64,000 bases of DNA, from contig CAYOWP010000004.1 of NCBI GenBank assembly GCA_964407715.1, forward strand, positions 9,668 to 73,667, in the 5' to 3' direction. Made by a program: the position numbers and the translations under genes. Numbering within the stretch: the first letter of the stretch is position 1; every line of letters starts with the position of its first letter. Shown here in pieces: positions 14,396-64,000 of this stretch. Below the pieces are notes generated by a model, which was not told where the DNA came from, made no database searches, and saw only the letters and a list, made by a program, of their open reading frames with translations. The stretch is from an uncultured archaeon (GTDB lineage: Archaea; EX4484-52; JAADEF01).

Positions 14396-14945
14396 GCCTT
14401 TGGAAAGTGATTTTCCCTGCGTTAACCAGTTATTTTGATAAATATGGTTAACGGGAGAGAGAGCCATTTGAGAGAGCTGAGTATAGTATGATAGCCTTTG
14501 AAAGCAGTTAGGAAGCAACTAACCTTTAAAAGCGGTTAGCTGCTCTAAAATCTTTGTGTTAGTGATATCTTCCCGTTAACCAATTTTTTATTTTTAAAAA
14601 TGGTTAAGGGGAAGTATACCTTCTCAAAGGATATCTTACAGCAGCTAACCATTTCAAAGCAGTTAGGAAGCAGCTAACCTTTTAGGGAAGGTTACCATAC
14701 TCCTAAGCCTTTGTGTTAGTGATATCTTCGCGTTAACCAATTTTTTATTTTTAAAAATGGTTAAGGGGAAAAATACCTCATCAAAGAATATCAAACAGCA
14801 GCTAACCTTAAATTGGGTTACTATGCTGTAAAACCTTAGTTATAGTGATATCTTCGCGTTAACCAGTTATATTCAAATAAAAAACATGGTTAAATGGAAA
14901 ACCTGACCATCTGAAAAACCATGGTAGAGCAGCTACCCAAAATAA
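14396..14945. repeat. Repeat locus R2a: ~3.5 tandem ~150-bp units of the GTTAACC-hairpin / GCTGCTAACC family
   Basis: Each unit starts GATATCTTC[C/G]CGTTAACCA...TGGTTAAGGGGAA, followed by CAGCAGCTAACC-N9-(G)GTTAGGAAGCAGCTAACC. Confidence 0.8.
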
Positions 14946-30369: not shown

Positions 30370-30415
30370 TCAATTGCAATGTGAGCTTCTCTAACACAAC
30401 TTTTTAGATGTTATC

Positions 30416-31045
30416 TCGCCTGTTAACCATAATTTGTTGAAAATGGTTAACGGGAAGAAATCGCTCTTCCAAAGCTTTGCGGCGGGATATCCTTTTTTGA
30501 AGGTTAGGTGCTTCACAACCGCTTTGAAATGTTAGCTGCTCTTATGTGTTTTCTTAGAGGGTTAGGTTTCCCGTTAACCAATTTTTTATTGAGAAGATTA
30601 TGGTTAACGGGAAGAAATCGCTATCACAAAAGTTTTTTTGAGTGCGCTATCCTCTTTTAAAAGGTTATCTGCTTCCTAACCGGTTTATTAGGTTAGCTGC
30701 TCTTATGTGCTTCATTAAGGTGACATCTTCCCGTTAACCAATTTTTTATTGAGAAGATTATGGTTAACGGGAAGAAATCGCTATCACTAAGGCTTCGCAG
30801 CATGCTAACCTTTATCAAGGGTTAGCTGCTTCCAAACCGCTTTAAAAGGTTAGCTGCTCTTATGTGTTTTCTTAGAGGGTTAGGTTTCCCGTTAACCATA
30901 TTTTTATTGAGAAGATTATGGTTAACGGGAAGAAATCGCTCTTCCAAAGCTTTGCAGCATGCTAACCTTTATCAAGGGTTATCTGCTTCCAAACCGCTCT
31001 GAAAGGTTAGCTGCTGTAATATGCTTCATTAAGATGACCTTTACC
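30416..31045. repeat. Repeat locus R3: ~4 tandem ~160-bp units
   Basis: Perfect hairpin CCCGTTAACCA-N20-TGGTTAACGGG at 30570-30611, 30730-30771 and 30888-30929 (period 158-160 bp); each followed by AGCATGCTAACC-N9-GGTTAGCTGCT and further GGTTAGCTGCTCTTATGTG half-sites. Confidence 0.85.
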
Positions 31046-50322: not shown

Positions 50323-51978
50323 TCATATCTTAGACAAAGGTTTAATTCCAATAATATCAAAAACAATACTTAAAACATCTCTTACTAAAAAAGAAAGATA
50401 CATTCCAGCATGCTCAAACTTAGGGTTATCAATAAAGCGTATGTTTTGATATAAGGTGTTATATCTCTTACATAGCTCTATGCTATATATAACCAAATAA
50501 TGTGGGTCATAATTATCTATGCTTTTCTTAATATAAAAAGGAAACTTATAGATGAAATTCAAAAGTTTTTCTGATGCATTGTTCTCTTTAAGCATTTTCA
50601 ATATCTTTTCCTGATTTAGCTCATTTTCCTGTTTTTTATCTTTATATTTGTTGATAAGGGATTGTATTCTTGCATAGGTATAAACCAAATAAATTGCATT
50701 CTCATTGTTGAATGTGGTGAATTTCTTAACATCAAACATAAAGTTTTTTCTTCTGCTCTGTGAAAGTAAAGCAAATTTTATGGTATTTATGGCAAGCCTT
50801 TCCAAGTTATCATGCAATATCTCTTTTTCCCTTTTTTCAAAATCTTCTTTGATTTTCTCTTTTAGAAAATCTATGAACTCATCAACAAAAACAACATTTC
50901 CTTTTCTTGTGGAGAACTTGCCTTCTGGTAAATACAGCAATCCAAAATCCACATGAACCAAATCGCTATCGCATAACCCTGCTTTTTTAGCAGCATAAAA
51001 AATCTTCTCAAAATATTGCTGCTGCTCATTTCCAACCACATAAAGTATTGCTAAGGGATTATATTTGTTGCATCTAAATCTTATCGCAATCAAGTCACGT
51101 GTTGAATATAATGTTCTCTCTCCTTTTTTATATATCACAAGATTGCCATAAGGAGTAGGAATCAAAACACTGCCATCTTTCTCATCTATAAAAGCAATCT
51201 TTCTTTTAATGAGATTCTCTATCAATGAATTTGCATGTTCAACTTGATTGCTCTCGCTATCATACACATCAAAAGATATATTGAGCTTATCATATATTCT
51301 CTTAAACTCTCTCATGCTAACCTCACAAAATCTCTTCCATAATTCAAAATTCTCTCTATCCCCATTTTCCAATTTTATAAATTCCTCTTCTCCCTTCTCT
51401 TTTATGCTCTCATCCTTTTCCTCATCTTTATGAATTCTTACATATAACTCAAATAAGTATCTTATTCCTCTCTTCTCTAATTCTTTCTCATCACCATATT
51501 TTTTATATGCATATATAAGTTTTCCAAATTGCAATCCCCAATCACCAAAATAGGTCATTCTTAGAACATTATATCCTGAGATGCTTAACAATTTGCTTAG
51601 AGAATCTCCAAGAATTGTTGATCTCAAATGTCCTACATTAAATGGTTTGCCTATATTAGGAGATGAAAACTCAACAATAACTCTCTCCTTATTTCCAAAT
51701 CTTGGAATAGATATGGTATTCAAGAAAAGATTTTTATATGAAACTCTCAGAAAGCAATTATCTAAAGAAAAACTCATTCCTATGCTATCCTCTAATTTTT
51801 TCTTTATTTTATCACATCCCTCATTTGAAATGTTTTTTATTTTATGTAGAGGAATCACAAAAACATAATCATCGCTCTTCTCATATATTGGCTGTACCTC
51901 TATGCCATATTCTTCCTTGAGGTATCTGTTTATTTTTTCATAGAGTTGATAATAATCAGCTATGCTGTGCTCATCCAT
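50323..51978 (-). CDS. argS: arginyl-tRNA synthetase
   Basis: SSPNIGKPFNVGHLRSTILGDSL (class I HIGH-region variant typical of ArgRS); C-terminal DALR anticodon-binding-like helices; 551 aa. Confidence 0.8.
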   Translation of the reverse strand: MDEHSIADYYQLYEKINRYLKEEYGIEVQPIYEKSDDYVFVIPLHKIKNISNEGCDKIKKKLEDSIGMSFSLDNCFLRVSYKNLFLNTISIPRFGNKERVIVEFSSPNIGKPFNVGHLRSTILGDSLSKLLSISGYNVLRMTYFGDWGLQFGKLIYAYKKYGDEKELEKRGIRYLFELYVRIHKDEEKDESIKEKGEEEFIKLENGDRENFELWKRFCEVSMREFKRIYDKLNISFDVYDSESNQVEHANSLIENLIKRKIAFIDEKDGSVLIPTPYGNLVIYKKGERTLYSTRDLIAIRFRCNKYNPLAILYVVGNEQQQYFEKIFYAAKKAGLCDSDLVHVDFGLLYLPEGKFSTRKGNVVFVDEFIDFLKEKIKEDFEKREKEILHDNLERLAINTIKFALLSQSRRKNFMFDVKKFTTFNNENAIYLVYTYARIQSLINKYKDKKQENELNQEKILKMLKENNASEKLLNFIYKFPFYIKKSIDNYDPHYLVIYSIELCKRYNTLYQNIRFIDNPKFEHAGMYLSFLVRDVLSIVFDIIGIKPLSKI

Positions 51979-52030
51979 AAATACTTATCCGTCTTAACTT
52001 TTTAAAATTCTTTTTATATATGTTTATAAT

Positions 52031-52105
52031 AGCGGGGTGGAGCAGCTTGGAGTGCTCGTCGGGCTCATAACCCGAAGGTCGCAGGTTCAAATCCTGCCCC
52101 CGCTA
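52031..52105 (+). tRNA. initiator tRNA-Met (anticodon CAT)
   Basis: AGCGGGG acceptor with an A1:U72 pair and three G:C pairs in the anticodon stem (TCGGG-CTCATAA-CCCGA), the archaeal initiator signature; T-loop TTCAAAT; 75 nt. Confidence 0.85.
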
Positions 52106-52135
52106 TAGCTATGCTATAAGGAATTGGGTGTTTAA

Positions 52136-52813
52136 ATGCATATAAAGAACATCTCAAAAAACCTGATAAAAATAAACAACAAACATTATGCCACATTATC
52201 AAAAAAGGAAGGATATAATGTATATGGAGAGAGAATAATAAGATATAAGAATAGAGAATATCGCATATGGAATCCAACAAAATCAAAATTAGGTGCTGCT
52301 TTACACAATAAAATTCCAATAAACATAATCAAGAAGATAGAATCTTCAAATTATATTTTATACTTAGGTATTGCCAATGGCACAACAGCATCTCATTTAG
52401 AGGATCTAAATCCAAATGCTATGATATTTGGTGTTGAAATTAGTCCAAGAAGCATCATTGATCTCGTTTATATGATAAAAAAGAGGAAAAGCAATATCAT
52501 TCCAATATTGGAGAATGCAGCACATCCATTAAGATATTCCTTTATGGTTGCAAAATCTGATATTCTATATGTGGACATTGCGCAACCCCACCAAACAGAT
52601 ATTGCATTAAGAAATGGAGAGCTATTCTTGAAAAAAGGAGGTTTGTTATTTCTTGCAATAAAAACGAGATCCATAGATATAAAAAAGAAGCCTGTTGAAA
52701 TTGTTAAAAAAGAAATAGAAAAAATAGAATCTTATGGATATGAGATTAGTTTTAGCACTATGCTGGATCCCTATGAAAGAGATCATGGATTTGTAGTAGC
52801 AATAAAAAAATAA
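52136..52813 (+). CDS. flpA: fibrillarin-like rRNA/tRNA 2'-O-methyltransferase
   Basis: YGE...RIWNP...SKLGAAL...ILYLGIANGTTASHLEDL...FGVEISPRS...LYVDIAQPHQ motifs are the canonical fibrillarin signature. Confidence 0.9.
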   Translation: MHIKNISKNLIKINNKHYATLSKKEGYNVYGERIIRYKNREYRIWNPTKSKLGAALHNKIPINIIKKIESSNYILYLGIANGTTASHLEDLNPNAMIFGVEISPRSIIDLVYMIKKRKSNIIPILENAAHPLRYSFMVAKSDILYVDIAQPHQTDIALRNGELFLKKGGLLFLAIKTRSIDIKKKPVEIVKKEIEKIESYGYEISFSTMLDPYERDHGFVVAIKK

Positions 52814-52826
52814 TAAGTAAGAGAAT

Positions 52827-53579
52827 TTATTCCTCTGCACGAGGTGCTAGTATATAATACATCCACAAATCATCGCTATCCTTAAAATCAAATCTTGCAG
52901 GTGCATCTTGATTTATGCTTATCTTAACTGTAGGTGCAACCTTCTTGGCTTTTGTTATCTTCTTAAGATAATCTATGGAATATTTTGCCTTAACATCTTC
53001 CTTAGCATCCAATGCTATCACACCTTCTGATTCTTTCTTAAATTCTGCCTCCATACTTGTAAGCTCACTTTGGGCAGAGATTGTAAATGCTCCATTCTCA
53101 AATGAAAATGTGGCTTCATCAGATATGTTAGATGCATCTTCTATAGCCTCCACAAATAAACTTGAGAGAATCTCAGCACTTCCCTTGAATTCAAGATTGA
53201 GTTCTGGTATTTCTTGAACCTCGCTGTCTAAGATAGGTAGAACAAATCTCTTTTCATGCTTGCCCTTTATAATCACATTCAATCTGCTTATATTTTTCTC
53301 ATTAATTTGAAATATGACCTTATCTGATGCCTTTGTCTTTTTTAAGGATTGTCTCAACAAATCTATGTTTAGCGTAAGATACACCTTATCCTCTACCTCA
53401 TATATATCAAAATTCTCCTTACCATAGAACATCTCTATAAGCGTTACCATTGTTGGATCAGTTGCCTTGAAATGTATTCCCTTTTCATCTATTACAAATG
53501 TTCCTTCGCTGAGAAGATTGCTAATTGCATCCAATATATCCTTAAAAGTACCTATGCTCATAAATTGCACATTCAACAT
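52827..53579 (-). CDS. pcn: DNA polymerase sliding clamp PCNA
   Basis: 250 aa; N-terminal FKDILDAISNLLSEGTFVIDEKGIHFKATDPTMVTLIEM typical of archaeal PCNA; acidic C-terminus. Confidence 0.85.
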   Translation of the reverse strand: MLNVQFMSIGTFKDILDAISNLLSEGTFVIDEKGIHFKATDPTMVTLIEMFYGKENFDIYEVEDKVYLTLNIDLLRQSLKKTKASDKVIFQINEKNISRLNVIIKGKHEKRFVLPILDSEVQEIPELNLEFKGSAEILSSLFVEAIEDASNISDEATFSFENGAFTISAQSELTSMEAEFKKESEGVIALDAKEDVKAKYSIDYLKKITKAKKVAPTVKISINQDAPARFDFKDSDDLWMYYILAPRAEE

Positions 53580-53645
53580 ATCATCACCTCTTCACATGAT
53601 AATATAATTAAATAATAATTTGTAATCTTTAAAAATGTTATCTTA

Positions 53646-53719
53646 TGGACCCGCCGGGATTTGAACCCGGGCTAATGCCTCCGCAGGGCATTGTGCTAAC
53701 CAAGCTACACTACGGGTCC
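53646..53719 (-). tRNA. tRNA-Arg (anticodon GCG)
   Basis: GGACCCG/CGGGTCC acceptor (perfect), anticodon arm ATGCC-CTGCGGA-GGCAT, T-arm CCGGG-TTCAAAT-CCCGG; 74 nt with a 4-nt variable loop. Confidence 0.8.
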
Positions 53720-53739
53720 AAAAAATAAAAAAGAATACA

Positions 53740-53976
53740 TTAAAAACTTTTTTTATATCCCTCTCTATATATCACAGGTTTATAAAATCCGCATCTCTCA
53801 TAATTTCCCTCGAGGGTTCTATAAAATCCATACCCTGAACACTCCTTGCATTTGTTTGAATCAGGAATCTCTTTTGGAGAATATACTGTAGGCTTTCCTT
53901 TTTCAATCTTCCATCTACATATATAAATACCTCTCCCTCCGTTCTCCTCCCCTATATCTACCATATTACTATTCAC
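53740..53976 (-). CDS. small Cys-rich (zinc-ribbon-like) hypothetical protein
   Basis: 78 aa; CRW...CKEC...ERCGF cysteine pattern. Confidence 0.3.
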   Translation of the reverse strand: MNSNMVDIGEENGGRGIYICRWKIEKGKPTVYSPKEIPDSNKCKECSGYGFYRTLEGNYERCGFYKPVIYREGYKKSF

Positions 53977-54015
53977 CTCCCTGTATTTAATTTTTACATT
54001 CTTTAAAGTTTCTTT

Positions 54016-54912
54016 TTAAAAATCTATTAATTTAGATATTATCTTTTCTTTCTTGAATATCTCCAAATCCTCATATCCTTGCCCTGTTCCTAAGAAAAAA
54101 ATTGGTTTTTTAATGGCATAGCATACATTCAAGAATGTGCCTCCTTTATTGTCAGCATCAAATTTTGTTATGATGTATCCATCAAATCCAACCTCATTAA
54201 ATAGCTTAGCTTGAGATATTGCATCATTTCCCGTAGTAGAATCTATCACCAAAAAAATAAAGGATGGTTTATTTACTCTAATAATCTTTTGAAGCTCATC
54301 TATAAGATTCTTATTGATATGCACTCTCCCTGCTGTGTCAGCTAACACAAAATCTATCTTATGTGATTCAGCATACCTTACAGCATCATATATCACTGCT
54401 GCACTATCCGCGCCATATCTGTTCTTGATTACTTTGATGTTAAGATTTCTTGCGTGTTCTTCTAATTGCTCTATTGCTCCTGCTCTATAGGTATCTCCTG
54501 CAGCAAATATGACAGAGTATCTTTTATCAAGAAGGAATTTACCTAATTTAGCAATGGTCGTTGTCTTTCCAACTCCATTAAAACCAATAAATATGATCAA
54601 CCTCGGAGTCTCCTTTTCTCTAATTCTTTCAAGAAATTCTCCTTCCAATAATAGCTCATCCAACAATGATTTGAGAGATGCTTTAATTTTATCTTTGATT
54701 TCAAGAGAGCTCAATTTTTTTCCGATAAGGGCATCTTTAATTCTTGTATTTAAGAGCTCTACAATCTCTAAAGATACATTGCTCTCCAATAAACTTATCT
54801 CCATATCCCACAAAACATCTTTTAAGTCTTCCTCAGAGATTTCTTTCTCTGTGAGTTTTTTAGCAATATCCTCTGTCTTATCTTTTAAAATGCTTCTTAG
54901 TTTCTTTAGCAT
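54016..54912 (-). CDS. ftsY: signal recognition particle receptor FtsY
   Basis: NG domain GFNGVGKTTTIAKL (G1), DTAGR (G3), TKFD (G4); short acidic N-domain and no M-domain so FtsY not Ffh; start reassigned to the ATG at 54912 because the ORF-track N-terminus overlaps tRNA-His. Confidence 0.85.
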   Translation of the reverse strand: MLKKLRSILKDKTEDIAKKLTEKEISEEDLKDVLWDMEISLLESNVSLEIVELLNTRIKDALIGKKLSSLEIKDKIKASLKSLLDELLLEGEFLERIREKETPRLIIFIGFNGVGKTTTIAKLGKFLLDKRYSVIFAAGDTYRAGAIEQLEEHARNLNIKVIKNRYGADSAAVIYDAVRYAESHKIDFVLADTAGRVHINKNLIDELQKIIRVNKPSFIFLVIDSTTGNDAISQAKLFNEVGFDGYIITKFDADNKGGTFLNVCYAIKKPIFFLGTGQGYEDLEIFKKEKIISKLIDF

Positions 54913-54914
54913 AA

Positions 54915-54986
54915 GGCGAGGACCGGGATTCGAACCCGGGTCAGCGGATCCACAGTCCGCCAGGATAACCACTACCCTATCCTCGC
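54915..54986 (-). tRNA. tRNA-His (anticodon GTG)
   Basis: Acceptor GCGAGGA/TCCTCGC with discriminator C; anticodon arm GCGGA-CTGTGGA-TCCGC; T-loop TTCGAAT; position -1 is A, not G. Confidence 0.7.
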
Positions 54987-55055
54987 TCAAAAAATGATTA
55001 ACAACATAAAAATATATTTTCAGATTTAAAAAGATTAAAAGAAAAACGCTATGCT

Positions 55056-55628
55056 TTATAAGTTTAAGCCATTAAGTGTATAGATTCCATTTGTCTCTAA
55101 TAATGTATGAACAATTGCTAATTCCAATGCCTTTTCAAAGTCTCTTGGTCTCCTTAGAATCTCAACCGCAATCAAACAATGGTCTATATTTGCCTTATCA
55201 AGCACCTTGTTTATTGTTCTCTTTGATCTCTGAACAAAATCAGGTACCTCTTCCTCTTCAAGTTCAAAGTTTTCTGATAAAGTGATGCTTAGCAATTTTC
55301 TACCTGTGAGACGAGGAGCAGGTACTATTGTAACTTTTATTGAGTTTGAGGGATCTGTTGAGCTTCCTGCCTGCATAACTGTATTTTCTATTTGCCTCGC
55401 TTCTCTTATTTTTATTTCATTGACCTTCATCTTCTTTAACATCTCTTTGATTACGGGATAGTTCTGAAAGCTGCACTCTATTTGGATTTCCCTTGAGATT
55501 ATAGAGACATTTTTAGCTCCTGATTCCATTAAAATATTGATAACAGTTTCTGATGAGATATTAGCAGGAAGTATTCCAGTAACTTTTAGCATGATATTCT
55601 TTGGAGACATAATAATAAATAAAATCAA
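55056..55628 (-). CDS. hypothetical protein (possible ACT-like regulatory fold)
   Basis: 190-aa ORF; probable start MLKVTGILPANISSE; no catalytic motif recognised. Confidence 0.3.
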   Translation of the reverse strand: MILFIIMSPKNIMLKVTGILPANISSETVINILMESGAKNVSIISREIQIECSFQNYPVIKEMLKKMKVNEIKIREARQIENTVMQAGSSTDPSNSIKVTIVPAPRLTGRKLLSITLSENFELEEEEVPDFVQRSKRTINKVLDKANIDHCLIAVEILRRPRDFEKALELAIVHTLLETNGIYTLNGLNL

Positions 55629-55710
55629 TATCTTTTAAAAAATTACGGTTTATCAATATCTCTATATATATGATTAGGATACATACCTTGTTCCTCCGCA
55701 CACTGCTCCA

Positions 55711-55990
55711 AATGGTTAACGGGAAGCATAACCTCTTCTCAAGGCATATCACAGCAGGTAACCTCTCCGAGCGTTTAGGAAGCAGCTACCCTGAAGAAAG
55801 GTTAGCATGCTTTTATGTGTTTGGTATTGTGATATCTGCGCGTTAACCAATTTTTATTTATTCAAAATAAATAAAAATTCGTTATCAGAAAACATACCAT
55901 CTCAAAAACCACATTGGAGCAGCTAATATTTTATTTTGGTTAGGTGCTATAAAACCTTGCAAAAGATGAGATCTTCGCGTTAACCATAAC
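55711..55990. repeat. Repeat locus R7: degenerate copies of the GTTAACC / GCTAACC hairpin family upstream of tRNA-Glu
   Basis: TGGTTAACGGGAAG, CACAGCAGGTAACC, TTTAGGAAGCAGCTACCC; CGCGTTAACCAA-TTTTTATTTATTcaaaATAAATAAAAA long palindrome; GATCTTCGCGTTAACCA. Confidence 0.7.
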
Positions 55991-56044
55991 GCCTTCACTT
56001 AATTTTTTAAAAATATCTTATCTAAATATCTTTTATTTTGTTTA

Positions 56045-56118
56045 GCCCCGGTAGTCTAGTCCGGTAAGGATAGCGGCCTTTCGAGCCGCAGACCCGGGTT
56101 CAAATCCCGGCCGGGGCA
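56045..56118 (+). tRNA. tRNA-Glu (anticodon TTC)
   Basis: GCCCCGG/CCGGGGC acceptor, anticodon arm GCGGC-CTTTCGA-GCCGC, T-arm CCCGG-GTTCAAATC-CCGGG; 74 nt; no encoded CCA. Confidence 0.85.
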
Positions 56119-56119
56119 T

Positions 56120-56869
56120 ATGAGAGTAAAAGTTACTCTTCTCATGAAGGAAAACACAGGTTTTTTACCATATTCATATCAGTATTTTTTATCTTCTCTT
56201 GTATATTCTGCTCTTGAGAAGGCAAATCCTGAGTTATCTTTTTATCTTCATGACCCGTCTCCTTTTAAAGGGTTTGTCTTTTCATCTTTGTTTTTTGAAA
56301 GGTTTCATAATAAAAAGCAAGGAATTTATTTTGAAGGGAAGGTTGTTTTTTATTTTTCTTCATTTTTTAAAGAAATTACTCGTTCTTTTGTTGAAGGAAT
56401 TTTATCTCTTAAGGATATCTATTTAGGAAAAAATAAATTTGATCTTGAAAAAATAGAAGTATTAGAAGATCCTGATTTCACAACAATAAATACTTTTAAT
56501 TTGCTTTCTCCTCTAATTCTCCAAAAGCCCATCAAAATAGGAAATAAACTTAAAGGTATAGATTTATTCCCACATGACAAAGACTTTTATGATTATCTAT
56601 TAAAAAATATCAAGAAGAGATATGAAAAATTTTATGGAAAATCTTTATCTTCTAACATATTTATAGAATTTTTAAATTTTAAACCAAAGAGATATTGTAT
56701 AAAAGGAGAGTATTACCGAGGGCCGCTAGGAACATTGCGCATAATAGCACCGAAAGATGTTTTACATTTACTATATCACACAGGCATTGGTTCAAAAAAC
56801 TCGATGGGATTTGGAATGCTTGCACCTTACTATGATTCTCACGGAAAACAACATAAAAATAAGATTTAA
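56120..56869 (+). CDS. cas6: CRISPR endoribonuclease Cas6
   Basis: 249 aa; C-terminal glycine-rich loop GIGSKNSMGFGML (GhGxxxxxGhG) diagnostic of Cas6; ATG 2 nt after tRNA-Glu. Confidence 0.85.
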   Translation: MRVKVTLLMKENTGFLPYSYQYFLSSLVYSALEKANPELSFYLHDPSPFKGFVFSSLFFERFHNKKQGIYFEGKVVFYFSSFFKEITRSFVEGILSLKDIYLGKNKFDLEKIEVLEDPDFTTINTFNLLSPLILQKPIKIGNKLKGIDLFPHDKDFYDYLLKNIKKRYEKFYGKSLSSNIFIEFLNFKPKRYCIKGEYYRGPLGTLRIIAPKDVLHLLYHTGIGSKNSMGFGMLAPYYDSHGKQHKNKI

Positions 56870-56916
56870 AAAGTTTATTTAGTTATCTATAATATTTTAT
56901 AAAAGAGGTTGAAATT

Positions 56917-58566
56917 ATGAACTCCTTGTTGCAATATGCGAAAGAGGAAGAAAAAAATAAAACCCATGCTCCTTCAGAACTACACTTTACAAGTAATTCT
57001 ATAAATTCCATAAAATTTGAAATACCTATTCATATAGATGCATGGATGTTAAATGGAATAGAAACACTTTATACTCTACTTAATGATCTGAAAGACTGCA
57101 AAGTAGAACTTGAATCTGATAGGTTAAAGGTAGAAATATTCGATCTGGAAAGTTTTCTAAAAATTTTTGCAGGAAAGATAGAAGATAAACAGAATAAAGT
57201 AATTTTTGTAAAAAAACTTGATAATAAGGGACAGGAAAAATTTATTAAAAAAGATTTCGTGCTTATTCAATACGGAAAAGCTATTAATGGAAAAAATGTG
57301 CTTAAAGAGAAAATTTATTTGGAAACAGAAAAACGTCTTAAAGATATTTTTTTAGCCATCAAAAAAGGGAACAAAACATGTATCCTCTGCGAGCGAAAGT
57401 TCAAAAAATCCGTTGATAAGTTAAAACAAGCTGTACATCCCTTTGCGACCAAAATAAAAAGTTTGAGCGGTGTGAGAACTCTAAAGGAAAATTACGACAA
57501 TCTCTGCCCACTGTGTTATTTGATAGGAACTTTGGAGTGGTTGGATGAAGCTATTCTTTATAGATGTTCCTTAGGTAGTGGTAAGCAAACTTATTCTGTG
57601 ATCTTTCTTCCATTTGAATTGAATCTCAAGAAACTTCATGAATGTAAGGTGGAATATAGAAAAATTTTGAAGAGTAATATAAATTCTCCAGTATCAAATT
57701 TACTAAAAATTGTACCATCCTCAGATGGTAAAGAAAAAAAGATTGGTTATGAAGGTGAGTACACAACGATTCTTAAGTTCTTTGAAAGATTTGTGAAGGA
57801 AATTCTTGGGGAATATGGCAGAGATAATTTCGAAGAAATTGACGAGATTTTTGGATATGCTGAGAGAAAATTCTGCAAATCTTGGATCATGCTTAAAATC
57901 CCTTCTGGAAATGTTAAAAACATTAAATTAAGCCGCTTAGATTTAAACAATGATTTTATTAAATTATTGATAGACCTGGAAAGAAAAGATATTTTCATCT
58001 ACGACAATATCGTGGACAAAATAGGAGTGCGTGATAAGAACGGCAAATTTCTTCCTAAAGAAACGTCTGAAACGAAAGAATACACGGCAAAAACCGTTAT
58101 TTTTGATAATTTCAGAGATTTCTCAAGAATGTTTTTACCGAGAAAAAATATAGTAAAATATCATGGTAATTTAAAAGATTTGGACGAACTAATAAAATTG
58201 TGGAGGTTGATGCCCATGAAACTTGATGAAAACCTAAAAGATATAAAAGATGCTGCAAAGACACTTGCAAAACTTCTGAAAAACCACTTAAGTATTTTGT
58301 ATGAAATGAATAAAGCCAGAACAAAAGAAGAGTTCATAAGAATCTATCAGCAAGCCTGCAGGAGATTATTGGGAGTTAGAGAAGAAGAAAGAACCAACAT
58401 TTACCCACCAGCACTCGAGAAGTTTGCAGACCTGCTGATAAATTCCTCTAACAACGAGTGGAAAACTCTAAGAGATGTGTTGCTTATCTATACTTCGATT
58501 TACATATCTAGAGGAGAATATAAAAATACTTTCACCGGTGAAGAAAATGAAGGAAACAAACCTTGA
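56917..58566 (+). CDS. cas8b: type I large subunit, Cas8b-like (Cst1/Csh1 position)
   Basis: 549 aa; CxxC...CxxC zinc knuckle (TCILCERKF...LCPLCYLIG); position between cas6 and cas7/cas5/cas3; family assigned from synteny and size. Confidence 0.5.
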   Translation: MNSLLQYAKEEEKNKTHAPSELHFTSNSINSIKFEIPIHIDAWMLNGIETLYTLLNDLKDCKVELESDRLKVEIFDLESFLKIFAGKIEDKQNKVIFVKKLDNKGQEKFIKKDFVLIQYGKAINGKNVLKEKIYLETEKRLKDIFLAIKKGNKTCILCERKFKKSVDKLKQAVHPFATKIKSLSGVRTLKENYDNLCPLCYLIGTLEWLDEAILYRCSLGSGKQTYSVIFLPFELNLKKLHECKVEYRKILKSNINSPVSNLLKIVPSSDGKEKKIGYEGEYTTILKFFERFVKEILGEYGRDNFEEIDEIFGYAERKFCKSWIMLKIPSGNVKNIKLSRLDLNNDFIKLLIDLERKDIFIYDNIVDKIGVRDKNGKFLPKETSETKEYTAKTVIFDNFRDFSRMFLPRKNIVKYHGNLKDLDELIKLWRLMPMKLDENLKDIKDAAKTLAKLLKNHLSILYEMNKARTKEEFIRIYQQACRRLLGVREEERTNIYPPALEKFADLLINSSNNEWKTLRDVLLIYTSIYISRGEYKNTFTGEENEGNKP

Positions 58567-58846
58567 AACGATAAAGAGCTTGCTCGAAAAACAAAAACAT
58601 GAACTGAAAATGAAATACGGAGTTAAAAGCATAGGTATATTCGGCTCTTTCGTGCGGGGCGAAGCAAAGAGTAGTAGTGATATAGATGTGCTTGTGGAAT
58701 TTGAAAAACCAATAAGAATGTTCAAATTTCTGGAGCTGGAAGAATATTTATCAAAACTCTGCGGACGTAAGGTTGATCTAGTATCCAAAAAAGCCCTTAA
58801 GCCGAATATAGGAAAGCACATACTGAAAGAGGTTGTGGAAATATAA
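58547..58846 (+). CDS. minimal nucleotidyltransferase (MNT / Pol-beta superfamily)
   Basis: GIFGSFVRGEAKSSSDIDVLVEF (GS...DxD) motif; ~99 aa from the ATG at 58547; overlaps the cas8b 3' end by 20 nt in another frame. Confidence 0.75.
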   Translation: MKETNLETIKSLLEKQKHELKMKYGVKSIGIFGSFVRGEAKSSSDIDVLVEFEKPIRMFKFLELEEYLSKLCGRKVDLVSKKALKPNIGKHILKEVVEI

Positions 58847-58867
58847 ATTCCAAAAAAGGTGTAAAAT

Positions 58868-60472
58868 ATGGCAAAATTGGAACGCACGGATAAACCTGTA
58901 AGCGTACTTTTAGAAGAATTGAAAAGAGGCGAGTTAGGTTTACCAGAAATCCAGAGAGGATACGTATGGAATAGACCGCAAGCAAGAGATTTGGTGGATT
59001 CTCTTTATAGAGAATATCCTTCAGGATTAATCCTCTTGTGGAAACCTAAGGAATTACCACAACTTCGCTCTCCGGATGTAGAACAGCAATCCGAAACAAA
59101 AAGAAATCCAACTTACTTAATTTTAGATGGTCAACAACGTTTAACATCCCTTGCGAAAGTGTTTGATGAAGAAGACGAAGATATAAACATTTATTTTAAT
59201 GTAGAAACTGAGGAATTTCAATTGTTCAGTACAAAATTGAAAGCAGATCCTTTATGGGTATCTGTGAAAGATGTTTTGAATAAGGGAGCTGTAAAAGTCT
59301 GGAGAGAGCTTAAGAAACGTTTATTTGAGAGGGTCTTACCACAAGTGAATGAAAAAAAGCTAGATGAATATTTGGAAAGGTTATCAAGATTAGAAAAAAT
59401 AAAGGATTATACATATCCTGTAATGATAATACACACAGATGATTATGAAGAAGTAACAGAATCGTTTATTAGAGTGAATTTCAATGGAACCAGACTAAAA
59501 GAGGCTGAAATGGCAATGGCACAATTGGCTTTCAGGTGGCCAGGAGTACTTGTTAAAGAATTTGAAAAAGCATTAGAAGATTATGAACAAATTAATTTTG
59601 ATTTCGAGCCTCGTTTTCTAATGAGATGTTTTGTGGCCATAGGTACAGGTCAAAGCAGATTTAAACATTTAACAAATCTCTGGAGAAAGAACTTAAATGA
59701 ACTTCAAGAGATATGGAGAAAAACTAAAGAAGGAATAGATTATACTATAAACTTCCTTAAGAACAACGCCGGAATAGAATCTTCAGAATGGATACCATCA
59801 ATTAATGCATTAGTACCAATTGTAGTCTATTTATCAGAACGCCAATCTTTAACAGAGAAAGAAGAAAGAATCTTGTTATTTTGGTTTTTTGTTTCCACAA
59901 TATTTGGAAGATTTACAGGTAGCCCTGAAACAAAATTAGATCAGGACTTGAAAGCACTCAAGAGTGAGGAACCTCTATTATCGCTTATAACAAATCTTAG
60001 GAGAGAAATGGCGAGTTTTGAGGTAACTCCAGAAATGCTTATAGGTAAATATCAAAGAAATCCCCATCTCCCACTAATATTTGTAATTTGTAGGAATAAC
60101 AAAGCTAAAGATTGGTTCACAGGCACAGTGCTAAGTTCAACTAATGTCGGTCCATCGCATAGACTGGAACTTCATCATATATTTCCAAAATCTTTGTTAA
60201 AAAACAATAATTATAAACCGCAAGATATAGATGCCCTTGCAAACATAGCCTTTCTATCTCAACGTGCAAACAGATCTATTTTGAATTCGCCTCCAAGTGA
60301 TTATCTTAAAGACATAGATGAAGAGAAACTCCGGGCACAGTACATTCCTATCGATAAAAATCTTTGGAAACTTGATAACTTTAGTAAGTTCTTAGAGGAA
60401 AGAAGATACCTACTAGCCAATGCTATAAACGATTATCTTAAGAGTTTAGGAGGGGATATTTATGAGATTTAA
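58868..60472 (+). CDS. DUF262 (ParB-like NTPase) fused to DUF1524 (HNH-like nuclease): GmrSD-type type IV restriction-like protein
   Basis: N-terminal IQRGYVWNRPQARDLVDSLYREYPSGLILLW...YLILDGQQRLTSL (DUF262 signature); C-terminal LELHHIFPKS...NIAFLSQRANRS (DUF1524 His-Me finger); 534 aa. Confidence 0.8.
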   Translation: MAKLERTDKPVSVLLEELKRGELGLPEIQRGYVWNRPQARDLVDSLYREYPSGLILLWKPKELPQLRSPDVEQQSETKRNPTYLILDGQQRLTSLAKVFDEEDEDINIYFNVETEEFQLFSTKLKADPLWVSVKDVLNKGAVKVWRELKKRLFERVLPQVNEKKLDEYLERLSRLEKIKDYTYPVMIIHTDDYEEVTESFIRVNFNGTRLKEAEMAMAQLAFRWPGVLVKEFEKALEDYEQINFDFEPRFLMRCFVAIGTGQSRFKHLTNLWRKNLNELQEIWRKTKEGIDYTINFLKNNAGIESSEWIPSINALVPIVVYLSERQSLTEKEERILLFWFFVSTIFGRFTGSPETKLDQDLKALKSEEPLLSLITNLRREMASFEVTPEMLIGKYQRNPHLPLIFVICRNNKAKDWFTGTVLSSTNVGPSHRLELHHIFPKSLLKNNNYKPQDIDALANIAFLSQRANRSILNSPPSDYLKDIDEEKLRAQYIPIDKNLWKLDNFSKFLEERRYLLANAINDYLKSLGGDIYEI

Positions 60473-60522
60473 AAACATGGCATGGATTATAATAAAAATG
60501 TTTGTGCACGGAGGTGAGATAA

Positions 60523-61497
60523 ATGAAAGGAATAAGTATTGTTTGGTTGTCCAAAACAGATTTGACGAACCTTAATGCAGGTGAAGGAGAAACAAATTAT
60601 ATTGATATCAAGAAATTCAGAAAGGAAGGAAAAGAATATCCCTACGTCTCAGGTCAAGCTATGAGATTTTACATTAAAGAAGCAATAAGAAGAAATCTTA
60701 AAGATAGAGAGTATATGTGTGTTCCTGATGATAAGGGTGAAACATGTGGAAATATTCAAAAGTGTATTCTATGCGATCTCTTCGGATTTATGAGTACTAT
60801 TAAAAAAGGTACTCCATGGCCAGGATATGAGAATGGACATCCAGGGGGAGCTGTAACTAGAGTATCTCCTGTGAAAGTGTCTCCTGCCATAGGTATGTTA
60901 CCGTTTGACGAAAATGTTGTCATAGACTTCCTAACAAGAAGAAAATCTCAAAAAGAAACAGGAGAATTATCTGGAGATATAGTGAATGTTGAAATAGGAA
61001 CAAACATTTATAAATGTGGAATTTCAATCGATGTAGTTAGAGTAGGGGGTGATGAAGTAATAGATAATGAAAATAGAACTGTAAAAATAGAATATCTTAT
61101 GCCCTCCGAAGAGAGAAAAAATAGAATTAAAAAAGTCTTGGAAGCTCTAAGGTATTTAACGGATTATTCGAAGCAGGCGAGATTGCTGACAGATTTCACT
61201 CCTGATGTGATATGCATAACATTCCAGAGTAAATACTCTCACAGGCTGCAGAAGCTGTTTGAGTTTGTAATCGAGAACGGGAAAATCGTAAGGAAGCTTG
61301 ATGTGAAAAGAATGGAAGAAATATTGAATGACGTAAAGGATTACAGCGACAGAATAATGTTTGGAATGATATCTGGAGTAATAGAGAACGAAGAAGAAGT
61401 AAAGGAAGTTATGCAGAAGTTTGGAATTGAAGTAAAAACACCGAAAGAGGTGATTGAAGAAGCTCTGAATTACATAAACAAAGTGGCGGTAGAGTGA
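60523..61497 (+). CDS. cas7: Cas7 (Csa2/Cst2/DevR family) Cascade backbone subunit
   Basis: N-terminal [17 protein letters not shown]...[17 protein letters not shown] matches the Cas7 RRM thumb motif. Confidence 0.8.
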
Positions 61498-62162
61498 GAG
61501 TGATCGAAATGCTTGGCCTGGTTTTTTATCTGGAAGGAATTTATTTTTGTTGTTTCAGGCAGCCGACCACAACAAGCCTAATCCTATCATTCCCCGTTCC
61601 TCCTTTTACTACTATCCGTGGTTTCTTAGAAAATGCTATAGGCTATGAAAAGGATTCATTTGCTCTACAAGAAAAAGATTTGCTCATTGGAATAAGACCT
61701 TTAAGCGAAATTGAGAAAACAACTGAACTGACAAAACTACTAAAGTTAAAAGAAAACGAGCCATGCTTTAAGAGAACTTTTCCTTCTTCACCTATGTTCA
61801 AAACTTTTCTAGTTAATCCTAAATATAAGGTATATTTAGTAGGAGATAATAAACTTATAAAAGAGATTGCAGAAAAGTTGAAAGATCCTTCCCGCCCTCT
61901 ATATCTGGGACAGTCCGACGATTTTGTGGATGTTAAAAATATAGAGACTATGGAAGTGGAAAAAACTAAGAGTTTGAAAATATATAGCGTTATTGAAGGT
62001 TTTCACGAAAATTGCGAGATTGTTAAACTTCCATACAAATTTATAAATAACGGGAAAGATGTGGAAATGAAAATTATCTCGATTCCAAAAAAGTTTCCGT
62101 TGAAGTTGAAAGAAGAAGTCGAGTGCTTTAAATTTGGTGAAGAATATGTGTGGTGCGTTTAG
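61494..62162 (+). CDS. cas5: Cas5 (Cas5t-like) Cascade subunit
   Basis: [33 protein letters not shown]: glycine-rich Cas5 N-terminal motif (PPPST..G...A.G); 4-nt overlap with cas7. Confidence 0.75.
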
Positions 62163-62249
62163 CAAAAAATATTGAAAAGATACTAATTCCAACAATTCAC
62201 AATATAAAGGCCTTGGGTGAACAAAAAAATAGAGGAGCAGGGAGAGTAA

Positions 62250-64000
62250 ATGCTCAAATTGGATAGGAAGAATGTGTTAGCAAAATTTTCAGAAAAAACT
62301 GGAAAAAAGCAAACTTTATCTGGTCACACAATAGATTGTCTTAAAATCCTAAGATGCTATTTTGAAAAAAATGAGGTAATTATAGAGGTATTTTGTAAAC
62401 GATGGAACATAGATAAACAAACATTCATGAGAAACTTGTTCGTTGCGGTTTATCTTCACGATATCGGGAAATTAACAAAAGAGTTTCAGAAGAGAATTAG
62501 TGAGGGAAAACACTCACAGCAGTATCCGCATGCATTTTATGGATTTCCAATTGTTTGGGAGGTCTTTAAAAAACAATTCCAGGAATTCGTGTATTCCGAC
62601 GAGCCATTAATAGAAACTTTAAGTGTTCTTGCACATCACACGCAGCTTTATGATGGAATTTACGAAAACGCGCAGATAAAGGAAGTGGATATACTGAAGA
62701 ACGAGATAATTGAATTCGTAAACGGAATTGAAAAGGTTTATGAAAGCTTAAGTTTCAAAAAATTTTTCGAGTTAAGATGGAATAACCTACAACTACACGA
62801 TTTAAAAAGTTTTGCTTTATTTGAAAGGAATCCCCAGCACAAAATTCCAAACGGTATAAGGAGATTGAGAGAAAAAATTGAAAATTTAAAGGGAAATAAT
62901 TTACAAAAAATTTGTGCACTAAAATCCATATACACATCCTTCCTTTCTATTTTAAAACTCTGTGACTACTATGCAAGTGTAGAGTTCTCAGAGTATGCCT
63001 GTAAGGATAACACAGAAAAAGAAATTTTTGATGATGTTTTGAAAAAACCTGAAAAATATGTGTTATCCTTGCCATCCATAACTGAGGATATCATCCTTAG
63101 AAAACATAAGCCTTATGAATTTCAAAAAGAGATAAAGGAAAAATCTCCAGAATTCTGCTTTTTGTTTGCTCCATGCGGGAGAGGAAAAACAGAAGCAGCT
63201 TTACTCTGGGCATTTGAAGTTTGTAAAAAATACAATAAAAACAAAATTATTTTTGCGATGCCAACTCAAACGACAAGCAATGCTATGAGAGATAGATTTG
63301 TAGAATTACTAGAGAGTGCTGGTCTAAATGGCGAAGAATATGTTGGTTTATATCATGGAAAGAGTTTTATTAAGTTTAAAGAAGAAAGAGTGAGAGATCA
63401 AGAGGAAGAGAAAGATGAATTAAGTGATGAGGATATAGAGGAGATAAAAGGAGAAAATTTTAAAGGAAATATATTTTTCAAGCCAATTACTATCACAACG
63501 ATAGATCATCTTATCCTTTCATTTGTTCATGGTTTTCCCCAGGCGGATTTCGCATTGGGTAATTTGCAAAACGCTGTGATCATATTTGATGAAGTGCATT
63601 ACTATGAAACGCAAACTCTAAAACATTTAGTTGATTTGTTTAAAATTTTAAGAAAAATGAGAGTTCCACACTTGCTTATGAGCGGAACTCTTCCAGATTT
63701 TCTGATTGAAAGAATTAATAAGGATTCAAAAGAGGAAAATATAAAATACGAGTTAATTAAAGATAAAATAGGACTTCAATATACTCCCTTCAAAATCGAA
63801 AAATATAAAGAACCCTTAATCACAAAAGAAAACGTAAATGAGAAAGTAATTGAGGAGATAATAAAAAATTTCAAGATAGGATACAATCAATTTATCATAC
63901 TTAATACAGTCGAGAGGTCACAAAGAGTATATAAAATATTAAAAGAAAAATTAAAGAAATTTGGTGAAAAATATGTAAAAGATATTTTCCTCTTGCATTC
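62250..64000 (+). CDS. cas3: Cas3 HD nuclease-helicase fusion (partial; runs off the window end)
   Basis: HD domain (LSGHT...VAVYLHDIGK), then SF2 helicase Walker A FAPCGRGKTEAALLWA and DEVH box IIFDEVHYYE; SD GGAGCAGGGAGAG upstream of the ATG at 62250. Confidence 0.85.
   Translation, partial: MLKLDRKNVLAKFSEKTGKKQTLSGHTIDCLKILRCYFEKNEVIIEVFCKRWNIDKQTFMRNLFVAVYLHDIGKLTKEFQKRISEGKHSQQYPHAFYGFPIVWEVFKKQFQEFVYSDEPLIETLSVLAHHTQLYDGIYENAQIKEVDILKNEIIEFVNGIEKVYESLSFKKFFELRWNNLQLHDLKSFALFERNPQHKIPNGIRRLREKIENLKGNNLQKICALKSIYTSFLSILKLCDYYASVEFSEYACKDNTEKEIFDDVLKKPEKYVLSLPSITEDIILRKHKPYEFQKEIKEKSPEFCFLFAPCGRGKTEAALLWAFEVCKKYNKNKIIFAMPTQTTSNAMRDRFVELLESAGLNGEEYVGLYHGKSFIKFKEERVRDQEEEKDELSDEDIEEIKGENFKGNIFFKPITITTIDHLILSFVHGFPQADFALGNLQNAVIIFDEVHYYETQTLKHLVDLFKILRKMRVPHLLMSGTLPDFLIERINKDSKEENIKYELIKDKIGLQYTPFKIEKYKEPLITKENVNEKVIEEIIKNFKIGYNQFIILNTVERSQRVYKILKEKLKKFGEKYVKDIFLLH

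Follow-up and report, generated by a model that had tools for sequence, protein, structure and literature searches.

The last part of a 64,000-nucleotide (nt) stretch of DNA from an uncultured archaeon (contig CAYOWP010000004.1; the whole stretch is referred to below as the window) contains a tRNA-Glu gene followed directly by a CRISPR-Cas locus, the 5' two-thirds of which is the region treated here. The gene order is cas6, cas8b, mntA, a GmrSD-like nuclease gene, cas7, cas5, cas3, cas4, cas1, cas2, a leader, and an array of 20 repeats. The remainder of cas3, cas4, cas1, cas2, and the array were seen beyond the window on a second contig, and the system is therefore a complete type I-B CRISPR-Cas locus, mostly ordinary in its makeup. 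The original prediction, made from the sequence alone, had proposed a type I-B effector operon at this position, and matches of the cas genes to Pfam, NCBIfam, and PADLOC profiles confirmed this assignment. It had overlooked, however, that two members of the operon, mntA and the GmrSD-like gene, are not cas genes.

The cas genes and the remainder of the locus

The genes described here are on the forward strand unless stated otherwise, and all of the cas open reading frames (ORFs) are full length, each with a family-level match. The first gene, cas6 (56120 to 56869), encodes a protein of 249 amino acids (aa) that matches the Pfam families Cas6_I-A and Cas_Cas6_C and scores 133.4 bits against TIGR01877 (cutoff, 58.65). 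Six Cas6 homologues can be aligned from residue 1 (MRxxVxL, with an invariant R2), and the ATG at 56120 is therefore the real start of cas6. The large-subunit gene cas8b (56917 to 58566; 549 aa) is preceded by a GAGGT Shine-Dalgarno sequence. Its product gave no match to Pfam and NCBIfam profiles; PADLOC identified it as Cas8b over the full profile (E = 1.4e-129), and it is 33 to 75% identical to the product of the gene immediately upstream of cas7 in 16 related loci. Inspection of the sequence inside cas8b (58190 to 58566) revealed a GGAGGT site ahead of an in-frame ATG at 58216. The 116-aa C-terminal product starting there (58216 to 58566) could be translated separately as a putative Cas11b-like small subunit, by analogy with the internal-start mechanism that provides the small subunit in types I-B, I-C, and I-D.

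Downstream of the two non-cas genes, cas7 (60523 to 61497; 324 aa) is of the Cst2/DevR type (TIGR02585, 147.6 bits; cutoff, 72.75) and has 772 homologues, the closest of which are 79 to 87% identical. The cas5 gene (61509 to 62162) encodes 217 aa if translation begins with the ATG at 61509. A GTG at 61494 could serve instead, and an exact look-up with the Cas5 protein begun at this GTG returned no match. Cas5 scores 41.4 bits against Pfam Cas_Cas5d (cutoff, 23) and 71 bits against the subtype-specific model TIGR01895 (Cas5t), which is under the cutoff of 96.7; the gene was called on the second contig as well. Finally, cas3 (62250 to 64000), encoding an HD nuclease fused to a helicase, runs past the end of the window. 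The full-length protein of 856 aa, taken from the second contig, scores 340.5 bits against TIGR01587 and 61.6 bits against TIGR01596.

This second contig, L001, was obtained by an exact-protein look-up of Cas7. Over 13,478 bases it is 100% identical to positions 50523 to 64000 of the window, and it extends 7.5 kilobases (kb) beyond them. Past cas3 it carries cas4, cas1, cas2, a 250-nt leader, and the array, followed by nop56/58 on the opposite strand. Cas1 matches the Cas1b model TIGR03641 with 451 bits (cutoff, 304), and Cas2 and Cas4 are also above their cutoffs. The array comprises 20 repeats of 30 nt (GTCTTAATAAGATCATAGTGGGATTGAAAT), which terminate in ATTGAAAT and are identical except for the degenerate terminal repeat, with spacers of 36 to 39 nt. 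A search for a CRISPR array inside the window was negative, so that the absence of an array from view, as predicted, and the placement of the adaptation genes and array past cas3 were both correct. Immediate succession by cas1, cas2, and an array, if shared by all relatives, had been put forward as a sign of an ancestral rather than an acquired arrangement. The array and cas1/cas2 do follow directly here, whereas the relatives of the effector genes are found in unrelated contexts with no adjoining tRNA gene.

Two spacers searched in a viral collection had no exact match, and comparison of the spacers with the window and all fetched loci yielded only chance matches of 14 to 15 nt, with no self-targeting. 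In the leader (L001, 16121 to 16372), a CTTTTTAAAT box lies about 80 nt ahead of the first repeat. It fits the local promoter motif and is probably the promoter of the array.

The tRNA-Glu/cas6 junction

The tRNA-Glu gene (anticodon TTC; 56045 to 56118) was identified by ARAGORN and by Rfam (RF00005, 68.9 bits), and its cloverleaf was recovered in the predicted fold of the junction. CCA is not encoded, and the discriminator base is the A at 56118. A single T at 56119 separates it from the cas6 start codon, and RNase Z is predicted to cleave at this 1-nt spacer. Both the abutment itself and the statement that it leaves no room for a separate promoter were thereby borne out.

A putative archaeal TATA box for the tRNA-Glu unit, TTTTTTAAAAA (56004 to 56014), has its first base about 41 nt upstream of the 5' end of the mature tRNA. 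The assignment of function follows from its resemblance to the TTTTTAAA-type motif found 30 to 47 nt upstream of the other tRNAs and also ahead of 14 protein genes (see below). No TATA-type motif was found in the 80 nt ahead of cas6, or in those ahead of ftsY (see below), a distance that is taken up by the tRNA itself. The sole A/T-rich stretch in the interior of tRNA-Glu is the T-loop TTCAAAT (56099 to 56105). Its centre lies 18 nt upstream of the ATG, compared with a local norm of about 26 nt, and is unlike every TATA variant ahead of other genes. An Rfam scan of the region upstream of the tRNA matched the tRNA alone. In the predicted fold of the precursor (56030 to 56132), the tRNA-Glu 5' leader CUUUUAUUUU pairs with cas6 codons 2 to 4 (AGAGUAAAAG), lengthening the acceptor stem. 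We do not claim this pairing as a conserved processing helix; the corresponding pairings at four ftsY junctions vary in register and strength.

The second tRNA-to-ORF abutment of the window is that of tRNA-His (54915 to 54986, reverse strand), which is followed by TT and then by the ATG of ftsY at 54912 (ftsY, 54016 to 54912, reverse strand), a spacer of 2 nt. In three divergent relatives represented by five contigs (L021/L022, L023/L024, and L029), the same junction reads CCTCGCC-T-ATG, with a spacer of 1 nt (L021, 5842 to 5917; L023, 7319 to 7394; L024, 9928 to 10003; L029, 2928 to 3003). FtsY of these relatives is 54 to 66% identical to FtsY of the window, the N termini are alignable from Met1, and the flanking genes are entirely different. 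Since the junction has been kept in divergent relatives with different flanks, the essential gene ftsY evidently tolerates such geometry across deep divergence. RNase Z prefers a U directly after the discriminator, and a U occupies this position at all five junctions.

The starts of other genes in the window provide a context for these junctions. For 14 genes that lack a Shine-Dalgarno sequence, a TTTTTAAA-type box begins about 29 to 41 nt (mostly about 30 nt) ahead of the ATG; examples lie upstream of 237, 966, and 31154 and, on the reverse strand, of 43360, 50323, and 55056. Genes internal to operons bear GGAGGTGA-type ribosome-binding sites. This pattern suggests that leaderless mRNAs are widespread in this organism. 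In the stretch 53579 to 53720, where tRNA-Arg(GCG) is followed by the PCNA gene, the spacer is 65 nt long, and both a separate TTTTTAAA box and a Shine-Dalgarno sequence can be seen in it. In the stretch 52030 to 52136, where tRNA-Met is followed by the fibrillarin gene, the spacer is 29 nt and holds no TATA-type box. Overall, the tRNA genes are woven tightly into transcription units.

The abutment of cas6 and tRNA-Glu is best read as co-transcription from the tRNA promoter combined with an RNase Z cut. According to this reading, the tRNA-Glu promoter would give rise to a tRNA-mRNA precursor that includes cas6 and probably the genes that follow it. RNase Z would then cut behind the discriminator of the CCA-less tRNA-Glu, freeing an mRNA that begins 5'-U-AUG. 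As the cut falls 1 to 2 nt from the start codon, cleavage itself would yield a leaderless mRNA, and the near-leaderless cas6 RNA should be a ready substrate for translation in a cell whose operon-leading mRNAs look largely leaderless. The tRNA-His/ftsY unit would use the same device.

An alternative is that the cas genes are expressed independently of the tRNA, with cas6 transcribed from a weak promoter inside the tRNA gene or barely expressed and cas8b onward transcribed from a promoter in the cas6-cas8b spacer. This spacer (56870 to 56916) does hold A/T-rich, TATA-like strings (TTTATTTAG and TATAATATTTTATAAAA), with motif matches at -52 and -21 ahead of cas8b, and operon-internal archaeal promoters are reported to be common (PMC2710873). 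However, the T-loop stretch is misplaced for a promoter and resembles no local TATA variant, and ftsY, which is necessarily expressed, is equally promoter-less in four genomes. We therefore regard independent expression as unlikely, although it is the alternative that fares best.

Codon usage sets the effector block apart

The original prediction had described a compositional shift from cas8b onward. As a shift in GC content this was rejected: individual genes have values of 0.28 to 0.37, the mean of the window being 0.320 (standard deviation [SD], 0.033), and neither these nor the sliding values depart from it by more than about 1.3 SD. Only measures at the codon level separate the block. The codon adaptation index (CAI) was calculated against 46 host genes, which have a mean of 0.717, an SD of 0.031, and a minimum of 0.653. 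The values for cas8b (0.628), cas7 (0.643), cas5 (0.622), and mntA (0.563) are lower than that of every host gene, and the GmrSD-like gene has a CAI of 0.665. In contrast, cas6 (0.705), cas3 overall (0.703), cas4 (0.777), and cas1 (0.725) resemble host genes, and cas2 is too short for an assessment. In windows of 100 codons, the CAI is low from about 57.2 kb to about 62.9 kb, ending within the HD part of cas3. The codons CGT, CCG, GCG, and CTG, which had been singled out as rare elsewhere in the window, occur at 23.2 per 1,000 in the cas8b-cas5 block and at 8.9 per 1,000 in host genes (2.6-fold; Fisher P = 8.5e-7), with no enrichment in cas6, cas3, or cas4-cas1-cas2. The predicted contrast between a host-like cas6 and a foreign-looking cas8b thus stood, as did the shift in codon usage. 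The foreign character, however, extends from cas8b to the start of cas3 and not beyond, the rest of cas3, cas4, and cas1 being host-like.

Protein identities are similarly uneven. In comparison with three related loci (L013, L015, and L025), which lie in unrelated genomic contexts on contigs with a GC content of 0.32 to 0.44, identity is 79 to 87% for Cas7, 63 to 77% for Cas5, and 65 to 75% for Cas8b, and it is 35% for Cas6, 44% for Cas1, 49% for Cas4, and 49% for Cas2. From codon usage and these identities together, the effector block appears to have a history that differs from, and is more recent than, that of cas6 and the adaptation module. The cas8b-to-cas5 block and the first ~600 nt of cas3 would thus have been gained or replaced by horizontal transfer, later than the rest. 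Horizontal transfer of an effector block is, like the subtype and the array, an ordinary feature of the locus.

The start of cas8b is suggestive of a recombination point. The first 100 or so codons of the gene are host-like in usage, unlike the remainder, and the protein has a 31-residue N-terminal extension (56917 to 57010) that is missing in five close homologues. Identity to homologues is low only in the first 50 to 100 residues, which include this extension. A chimeric gene was considered on these grounds; the evidence is not conclusive.

A nuclease gene that probably replaced hepT between cas8b and cas7

Both non-cas genes are located in the interval from cas8b to cas7. The first, mntA (58547 to 58846; 99 aa), overlaps the 3' end of cas8b by 20 nt and encodes a minimal nucleotidyltransferase (MNT) that matches Pfam NTP_transf_2 (58.8 bits), PADLOC PDC-S09 (E = 1e-31), and the structure PDB 1wot; against the NCBIfam model MntA_antitoxin it scores 52.1 bits, under the cutoff of 60. 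Its catalytic GS...DxD...D motif is intact and invariant in the alignment. A 139-codon ORF antisense to mntA (58468 to 58887, reverse strand) is of low complexity and is almost certainly not a gene.

The second gene (58868 to 60472; 534 aa) begins 21 nt past mntA and encodes a predicted GmrSD/BrxU-like nuclease of the type IV restriction type. The N-terminal DUF262 domain matches Pfam GmrSD_N (103.7 bits; cutoff, 33.2), with residues D87-G-Q-Q-R91 invariant across 12 homologues. The protein also matches the BrxU structure PDB 7p9k (E = 5e-9) and, over residues 123 to 525, PADLOC HEC-05, the BrxU-like group (E = 4e-46). The C terminus reaches only 17.1 bits against Pfam GmrSD_C (DUF1524; cutoff, 23). 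Nonetheless, the putative C-terminal His-Me finger motif HHIFP and residues N459 and N468 do not vary among these 12 homologues; BrxU (DHIYP) carries D in place of H.

The nuclease family (7,767 matches) has been transferred widely and is strongly conserved, with 65% identity or more across Thermotogae, Firmicutes, Bipolaricaulota, and archaea, as a solitary gene. The closest homologues (73 to 77% identical) are solitary members of defence islands beside SIR2, PLD-helicase, and MmeI-type genes; their flanks are unrelated, and none of them has an MNT or cas gene as a neighbour. Plasmid and phage collections contained only distant homologues of the nuclease (35% identity or less), and a metagenome scan with the GmrSD-like protein returned one short locus that provides no context.

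Among related loci, cas8b abuts cas7 directly in L013 and L025 and in each of the 10 genome loci retrieved with Cas7. L015, whose Cas7 is 79% identical to that of the window, instead has the order cas8b-mntA-hepT-cas7, in which hepT overlaps mntA. Its MntA is 80% identical to MntA of the window, and its mntA has the same overlap with the end of cas8b. At the DNA level, the window and L015 are homologous as far as the mntA stop codon and again from the cas7 ribosome-binding site onward; in between, L015 has hepT and the window has the GmrSD-like gene. No HepT or remnant was found in the window by tblastn. Because L015 has mntA-hepT at the same spot, replacement of hepT by the nuclease gene is the most straightforward account. 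In the proposed sequence of events, a mntA-hepT toxin-antitoxin pair was inserted between cas8b and cas7 in an ancestor, and a mobile, normally stand-alone GmrSD/BrxU-like nuclease gene may then have replaced hepT exactly, leaving mntA as an intact orphan. The predicted nuclease would be co-expressed with the Cascade genes, and it most likely provides a second, modification-dependent line of DNA defence.

Other toxin-antitoxin-type genes occur in close relatives. A solitary gene for a MazE-type antitoxin lies between cas6 and cas8b in L026 (4301 to 4552), and in L027 (1429 to 2016) and L028 the same interval holds an 81-aa Cas8b N-terminal stub followed by a different MNT gene (45% identical). 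The cas6/cas8b and cas8b/cas7 junctions therefore look like recurrent landing sites.

The adjacent genes could also constitute a new functional pair, in which MntA nucleotidylates and restrains the nuclease, as it does with HepT, the two forming an addiction or abortive-infection module of the Cascade operon. The genes are neighbours on one strand, both retain intact catalytic motifs, mntA has been kept at 80% identity to a hepT-linked copy, and toxin-antitoxin-type genes recur in this I-B clade (MazE in L026, MNT in L027 and L028, and mntA-hepT in L015). Comparative support, however, is lacking: the nearest homologues of the nuclease have no MNT neighbour, and the family is conserved across many phyla as a solitary gene. 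Moreover, solitary MNTs of this type are already catalogued as the defence candidate PDC-S09, and the junction pattern resembles a simple cassette swap. Such a pair is thus quite improbable, and replacement of hepT by an independent nuclease gene remains the preferred account of the cassette.

Combined interpretation of the locus

Collectively, these findings are best accommodated by a type I-B locus that is co-transcribed from a tRNA promoter and released by RNase Z, that acquired its cas8b-cas5 block later, and in which hepT was replaced by a nuclease gene. We consider this combined interpretation moderately probable. Within it, the tRNA-Glu/cas6 abutment is more readily seen as design than as a cas-specific integration scar, because ftsY shares the junction, leaderless mRNAs appear routine, and nothing supports integration. 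More broadly, a DPANN-like lineage may use tRNA genes jointly as promoters and processing signals ("tRNA punctuation"), a device that would be old, would be kept by selection for ftsY, and would also have been taken up by the CRISPR-Cas operon. For this wider proposal, we see the chances as evenly balanced.

Several points weigh against the combined interpretation. Everything past the lack of room for a promoter, namely co-transcription, RNase Z cleavage, and translation of the cut RNA, is what we infer from the arrangement of the genes. A run of six Ts early in cas6 (56161 to 56166) is a candidate archaeal terminator, such T-runs being found all over this AT-rich genome, and the genes downstream could have a promoter of their own in the TATA-like stretch of the 47-nt cas6-cas8b spacer; with these, partial termination and a promoter inside the operon are both conceivable. 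FtsY look-ups found no close host relative carrying the locus in which conservation of the tRNA-Glu/cas6 junction could be seen. The low CAI of the effector block may stem from low expression instead of foreign origin. Finally, the direction of the hepT/gmrSD swap was deduced from the canonical mntA-hepT pairing and not from phylogeny.

It had also been suggested that the CRISPR-Cas module integrated at the tRNA-Glu 3' end, as or on an integrative element, the abutment being the scar. The 3' ends of tRNA genes are classic integration sites, part of the locus is atypical in codon usage, and the contexts in which the effector genes' relatives lie are unrelated. Within 15 kb downstream, however, the array and beyond included, no direct repeat derived from tRNA-Glu or a part of it was found; a blastn-short comparison of tRNA-Glu with 71.5 kb returned only T-arm matches to other tRNAs and chance 9- to 11-mers. 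There is also no integrase or recombinase gene among those between tRNA-Glu and nop56/58. Furthermore, the gene that touches the tRNA, cas6, is host-like, and the foreign stretch begins about 1.1 kb further on and stops inside cas3. The same geometry, with 1 to 2 nt between tRNA and start codon, is found at the essential and vertically conserved ftsY. This suggestion did not hold up, and we rate integration as very improbable.

Least probable of all is a decaying locus, in which the 1.96-kb insertion between cas8b and cas7 upsets Cascade stoichiometry so that interference is lost; foreign DNA in the middle of the effector operon and the two spacers without a viral match would fit, but the intact cas ORFs with their family matches, the GGAGGTGA ribosome-binding site retained by cas7, an array of 20 repeats of which the terminal one alone is degenerate, and inserts at the same or a neighbouring junction in several otherwise intact relatives speak against it.

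If the combined interpretation is correct, cas expression is tied to the transcription and maturation of tRNA-Glu, and the level of immunity is thereby linked to a housekeeping tRNA promoter. The 1-nt tRNA-ATG junction would represent a simple route to leaderless mRNAs through tRNA 3' processing in compact archaeal genomes. A limited literature search found no description of a start codon placed 1 nt past the discriminator and conserved for an essential gene. The cassette, for its part, would extend the pattern of defence genes within defence operons to a CRISPR-Cas effector operon, and it appears to capture a clean evolutionary step, the swap of the toxin gene hepT for a nuclease gene beside a retained antitoxin-type gene.

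Comparison with known systems

The locus resembles the type I-B systems of Archaeoglobi, Methanobacterium, and Thermotogae in gene set, order, and families (Cst2/DevR-type Cas7, Cas8b, Cas5, a fused HD-helicase Cas3, and Cas1b), and many archaeal and bacterial phyla have homologues that share 61 to 68% identity with its Cas7. It differs from them in the two non-cas genes between cas8b and cas7, in a cas6 that starts 1 nt past a tRNA gene, and in a codon usage that is mosaic across the operon.

The tRNA-Glu/cas6 arrangement has a parallel in the tRNA punctuation model of mitochondria. Among archaea, RNase Z is documented to resolve tRNA co-transcripts in T. kodakarensis, where a tRNA-Lys lies in the 5' untranslated region of TK0306 and a tRNA-Arg/small RNA (sRNA) precursor is known, and in N. 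equitans, which has tRNA-sRNA precursors (PMC4247193). The likeness is that the tRNA and the downstream RNA are on the same strand with no promoter between them, and that release by RNase Z is proposed. The difference is that here the start codon lies 1 to 2 nt past the discriminator and that the tRNA-His/ftsY case is conserved across deep divergence.

As for the cassette, GmrSD-like genes of the groups HEC-05 and HEC-06 are reportedly often embedded in Hma and type I restriction-modification systems, and BrxU is embedded in BREX (bioRxiv 10.1101/2024.01.29.577857). The rationale proposed there is that they cover modified DNA missed by the host system; the word CRISPR is absent from the main text of that report. 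The present gene likewise is a single-gene GmrSD/BrxU-like nuclease nested in the same orientation in a multigene immune operon. Here, however, the host system is a CRISPR-Cas effector operon, and the nuclease took the place of a resident toxin. With MntA-HepT (HEPN/MNT, type VII), the locus shares an MNT that has the minimal nucleotidyltransferase fold and motifs and whose gene has an orthologue in L015 followed by hepT. It differs in that the window has no HepT and that the NCBIfam score for MntA is under the cutoff. CreTA, an RNA toxin-antitoxin inside a Haloarcula type I-B cas operon that is controlled by Cascade (PMC12737573), is similarly a toxin-antitoxin-type element between I-B effector genes; it is RNA based, whereas the genes here are protein coding, and no crRNA-like element was found with them. 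The shared placement of CreTA and the present cassette suggests that addiction or abortive modules are repeatedly associated with Cascade genes.

The host and other features of the window

The neighbouring host genes are archaeal and include those for fibrillarin, PCNA, Nop56/58, and ArgRS. The nearest relatives of FtsY are 62 to 66% identical and come from hydrothermal metagenomes; the next tier (50 to 55%) is labelled Aenigmatarchaeota or Nanohaloarchaeota. On account of these labels, we cautiously describe the host as an AT-rich archaeon with DPANN-like affinities. Dating of the locus by host synteny proved unusable, as even the nearest of these FtsY relatives have wholly different flanks.

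A degenerate copy of a dispersed hairpin repeat, which the original prediction had placed upstream of tRNA-Glu, is indeed present there (55710 to 55987, forward strand). It was recognized from inverted and direct repeats, comprises about 1.5 units of ~157 nt with a terminal stem ATGGTTAACGGGAAG / CTTCGCGTTAACCAT, and was matched by BLAST to full tandem copies elsewhere in the window (14419 to 14883 and 30410 to 31031). The family unit of ~157 nt is a long hairpin closed by ATGGTTAACGGGAAG / CTTCCCGTTAACCA with a T-run after it, and for the copy ahead of tRNA-Glu the predicted folding energy is -82.6 kcal/mol (z = -5.6). An Rfam search with the repeat matched no family. The repeat could represent a small-RNA family or an element resembling a miniature inverted-repeat transposable element.

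The fibrillarin and nop56/58 genes of archaea usually form one operon. Here, fibrillarin (52136 to 52813, forward strand) and nop56/58 (L001, 17919 to 18902, reverse strand; window-equivalent positions 68441 to 69424) are 16 kb apart on opposite strands. Flipping the segment from fibrillarin to the array would bring back the canonical fibrillarin/nop56/58 pair. This suggests an earlier inversion, one of whose breakpoints was at the CRISPR locus.

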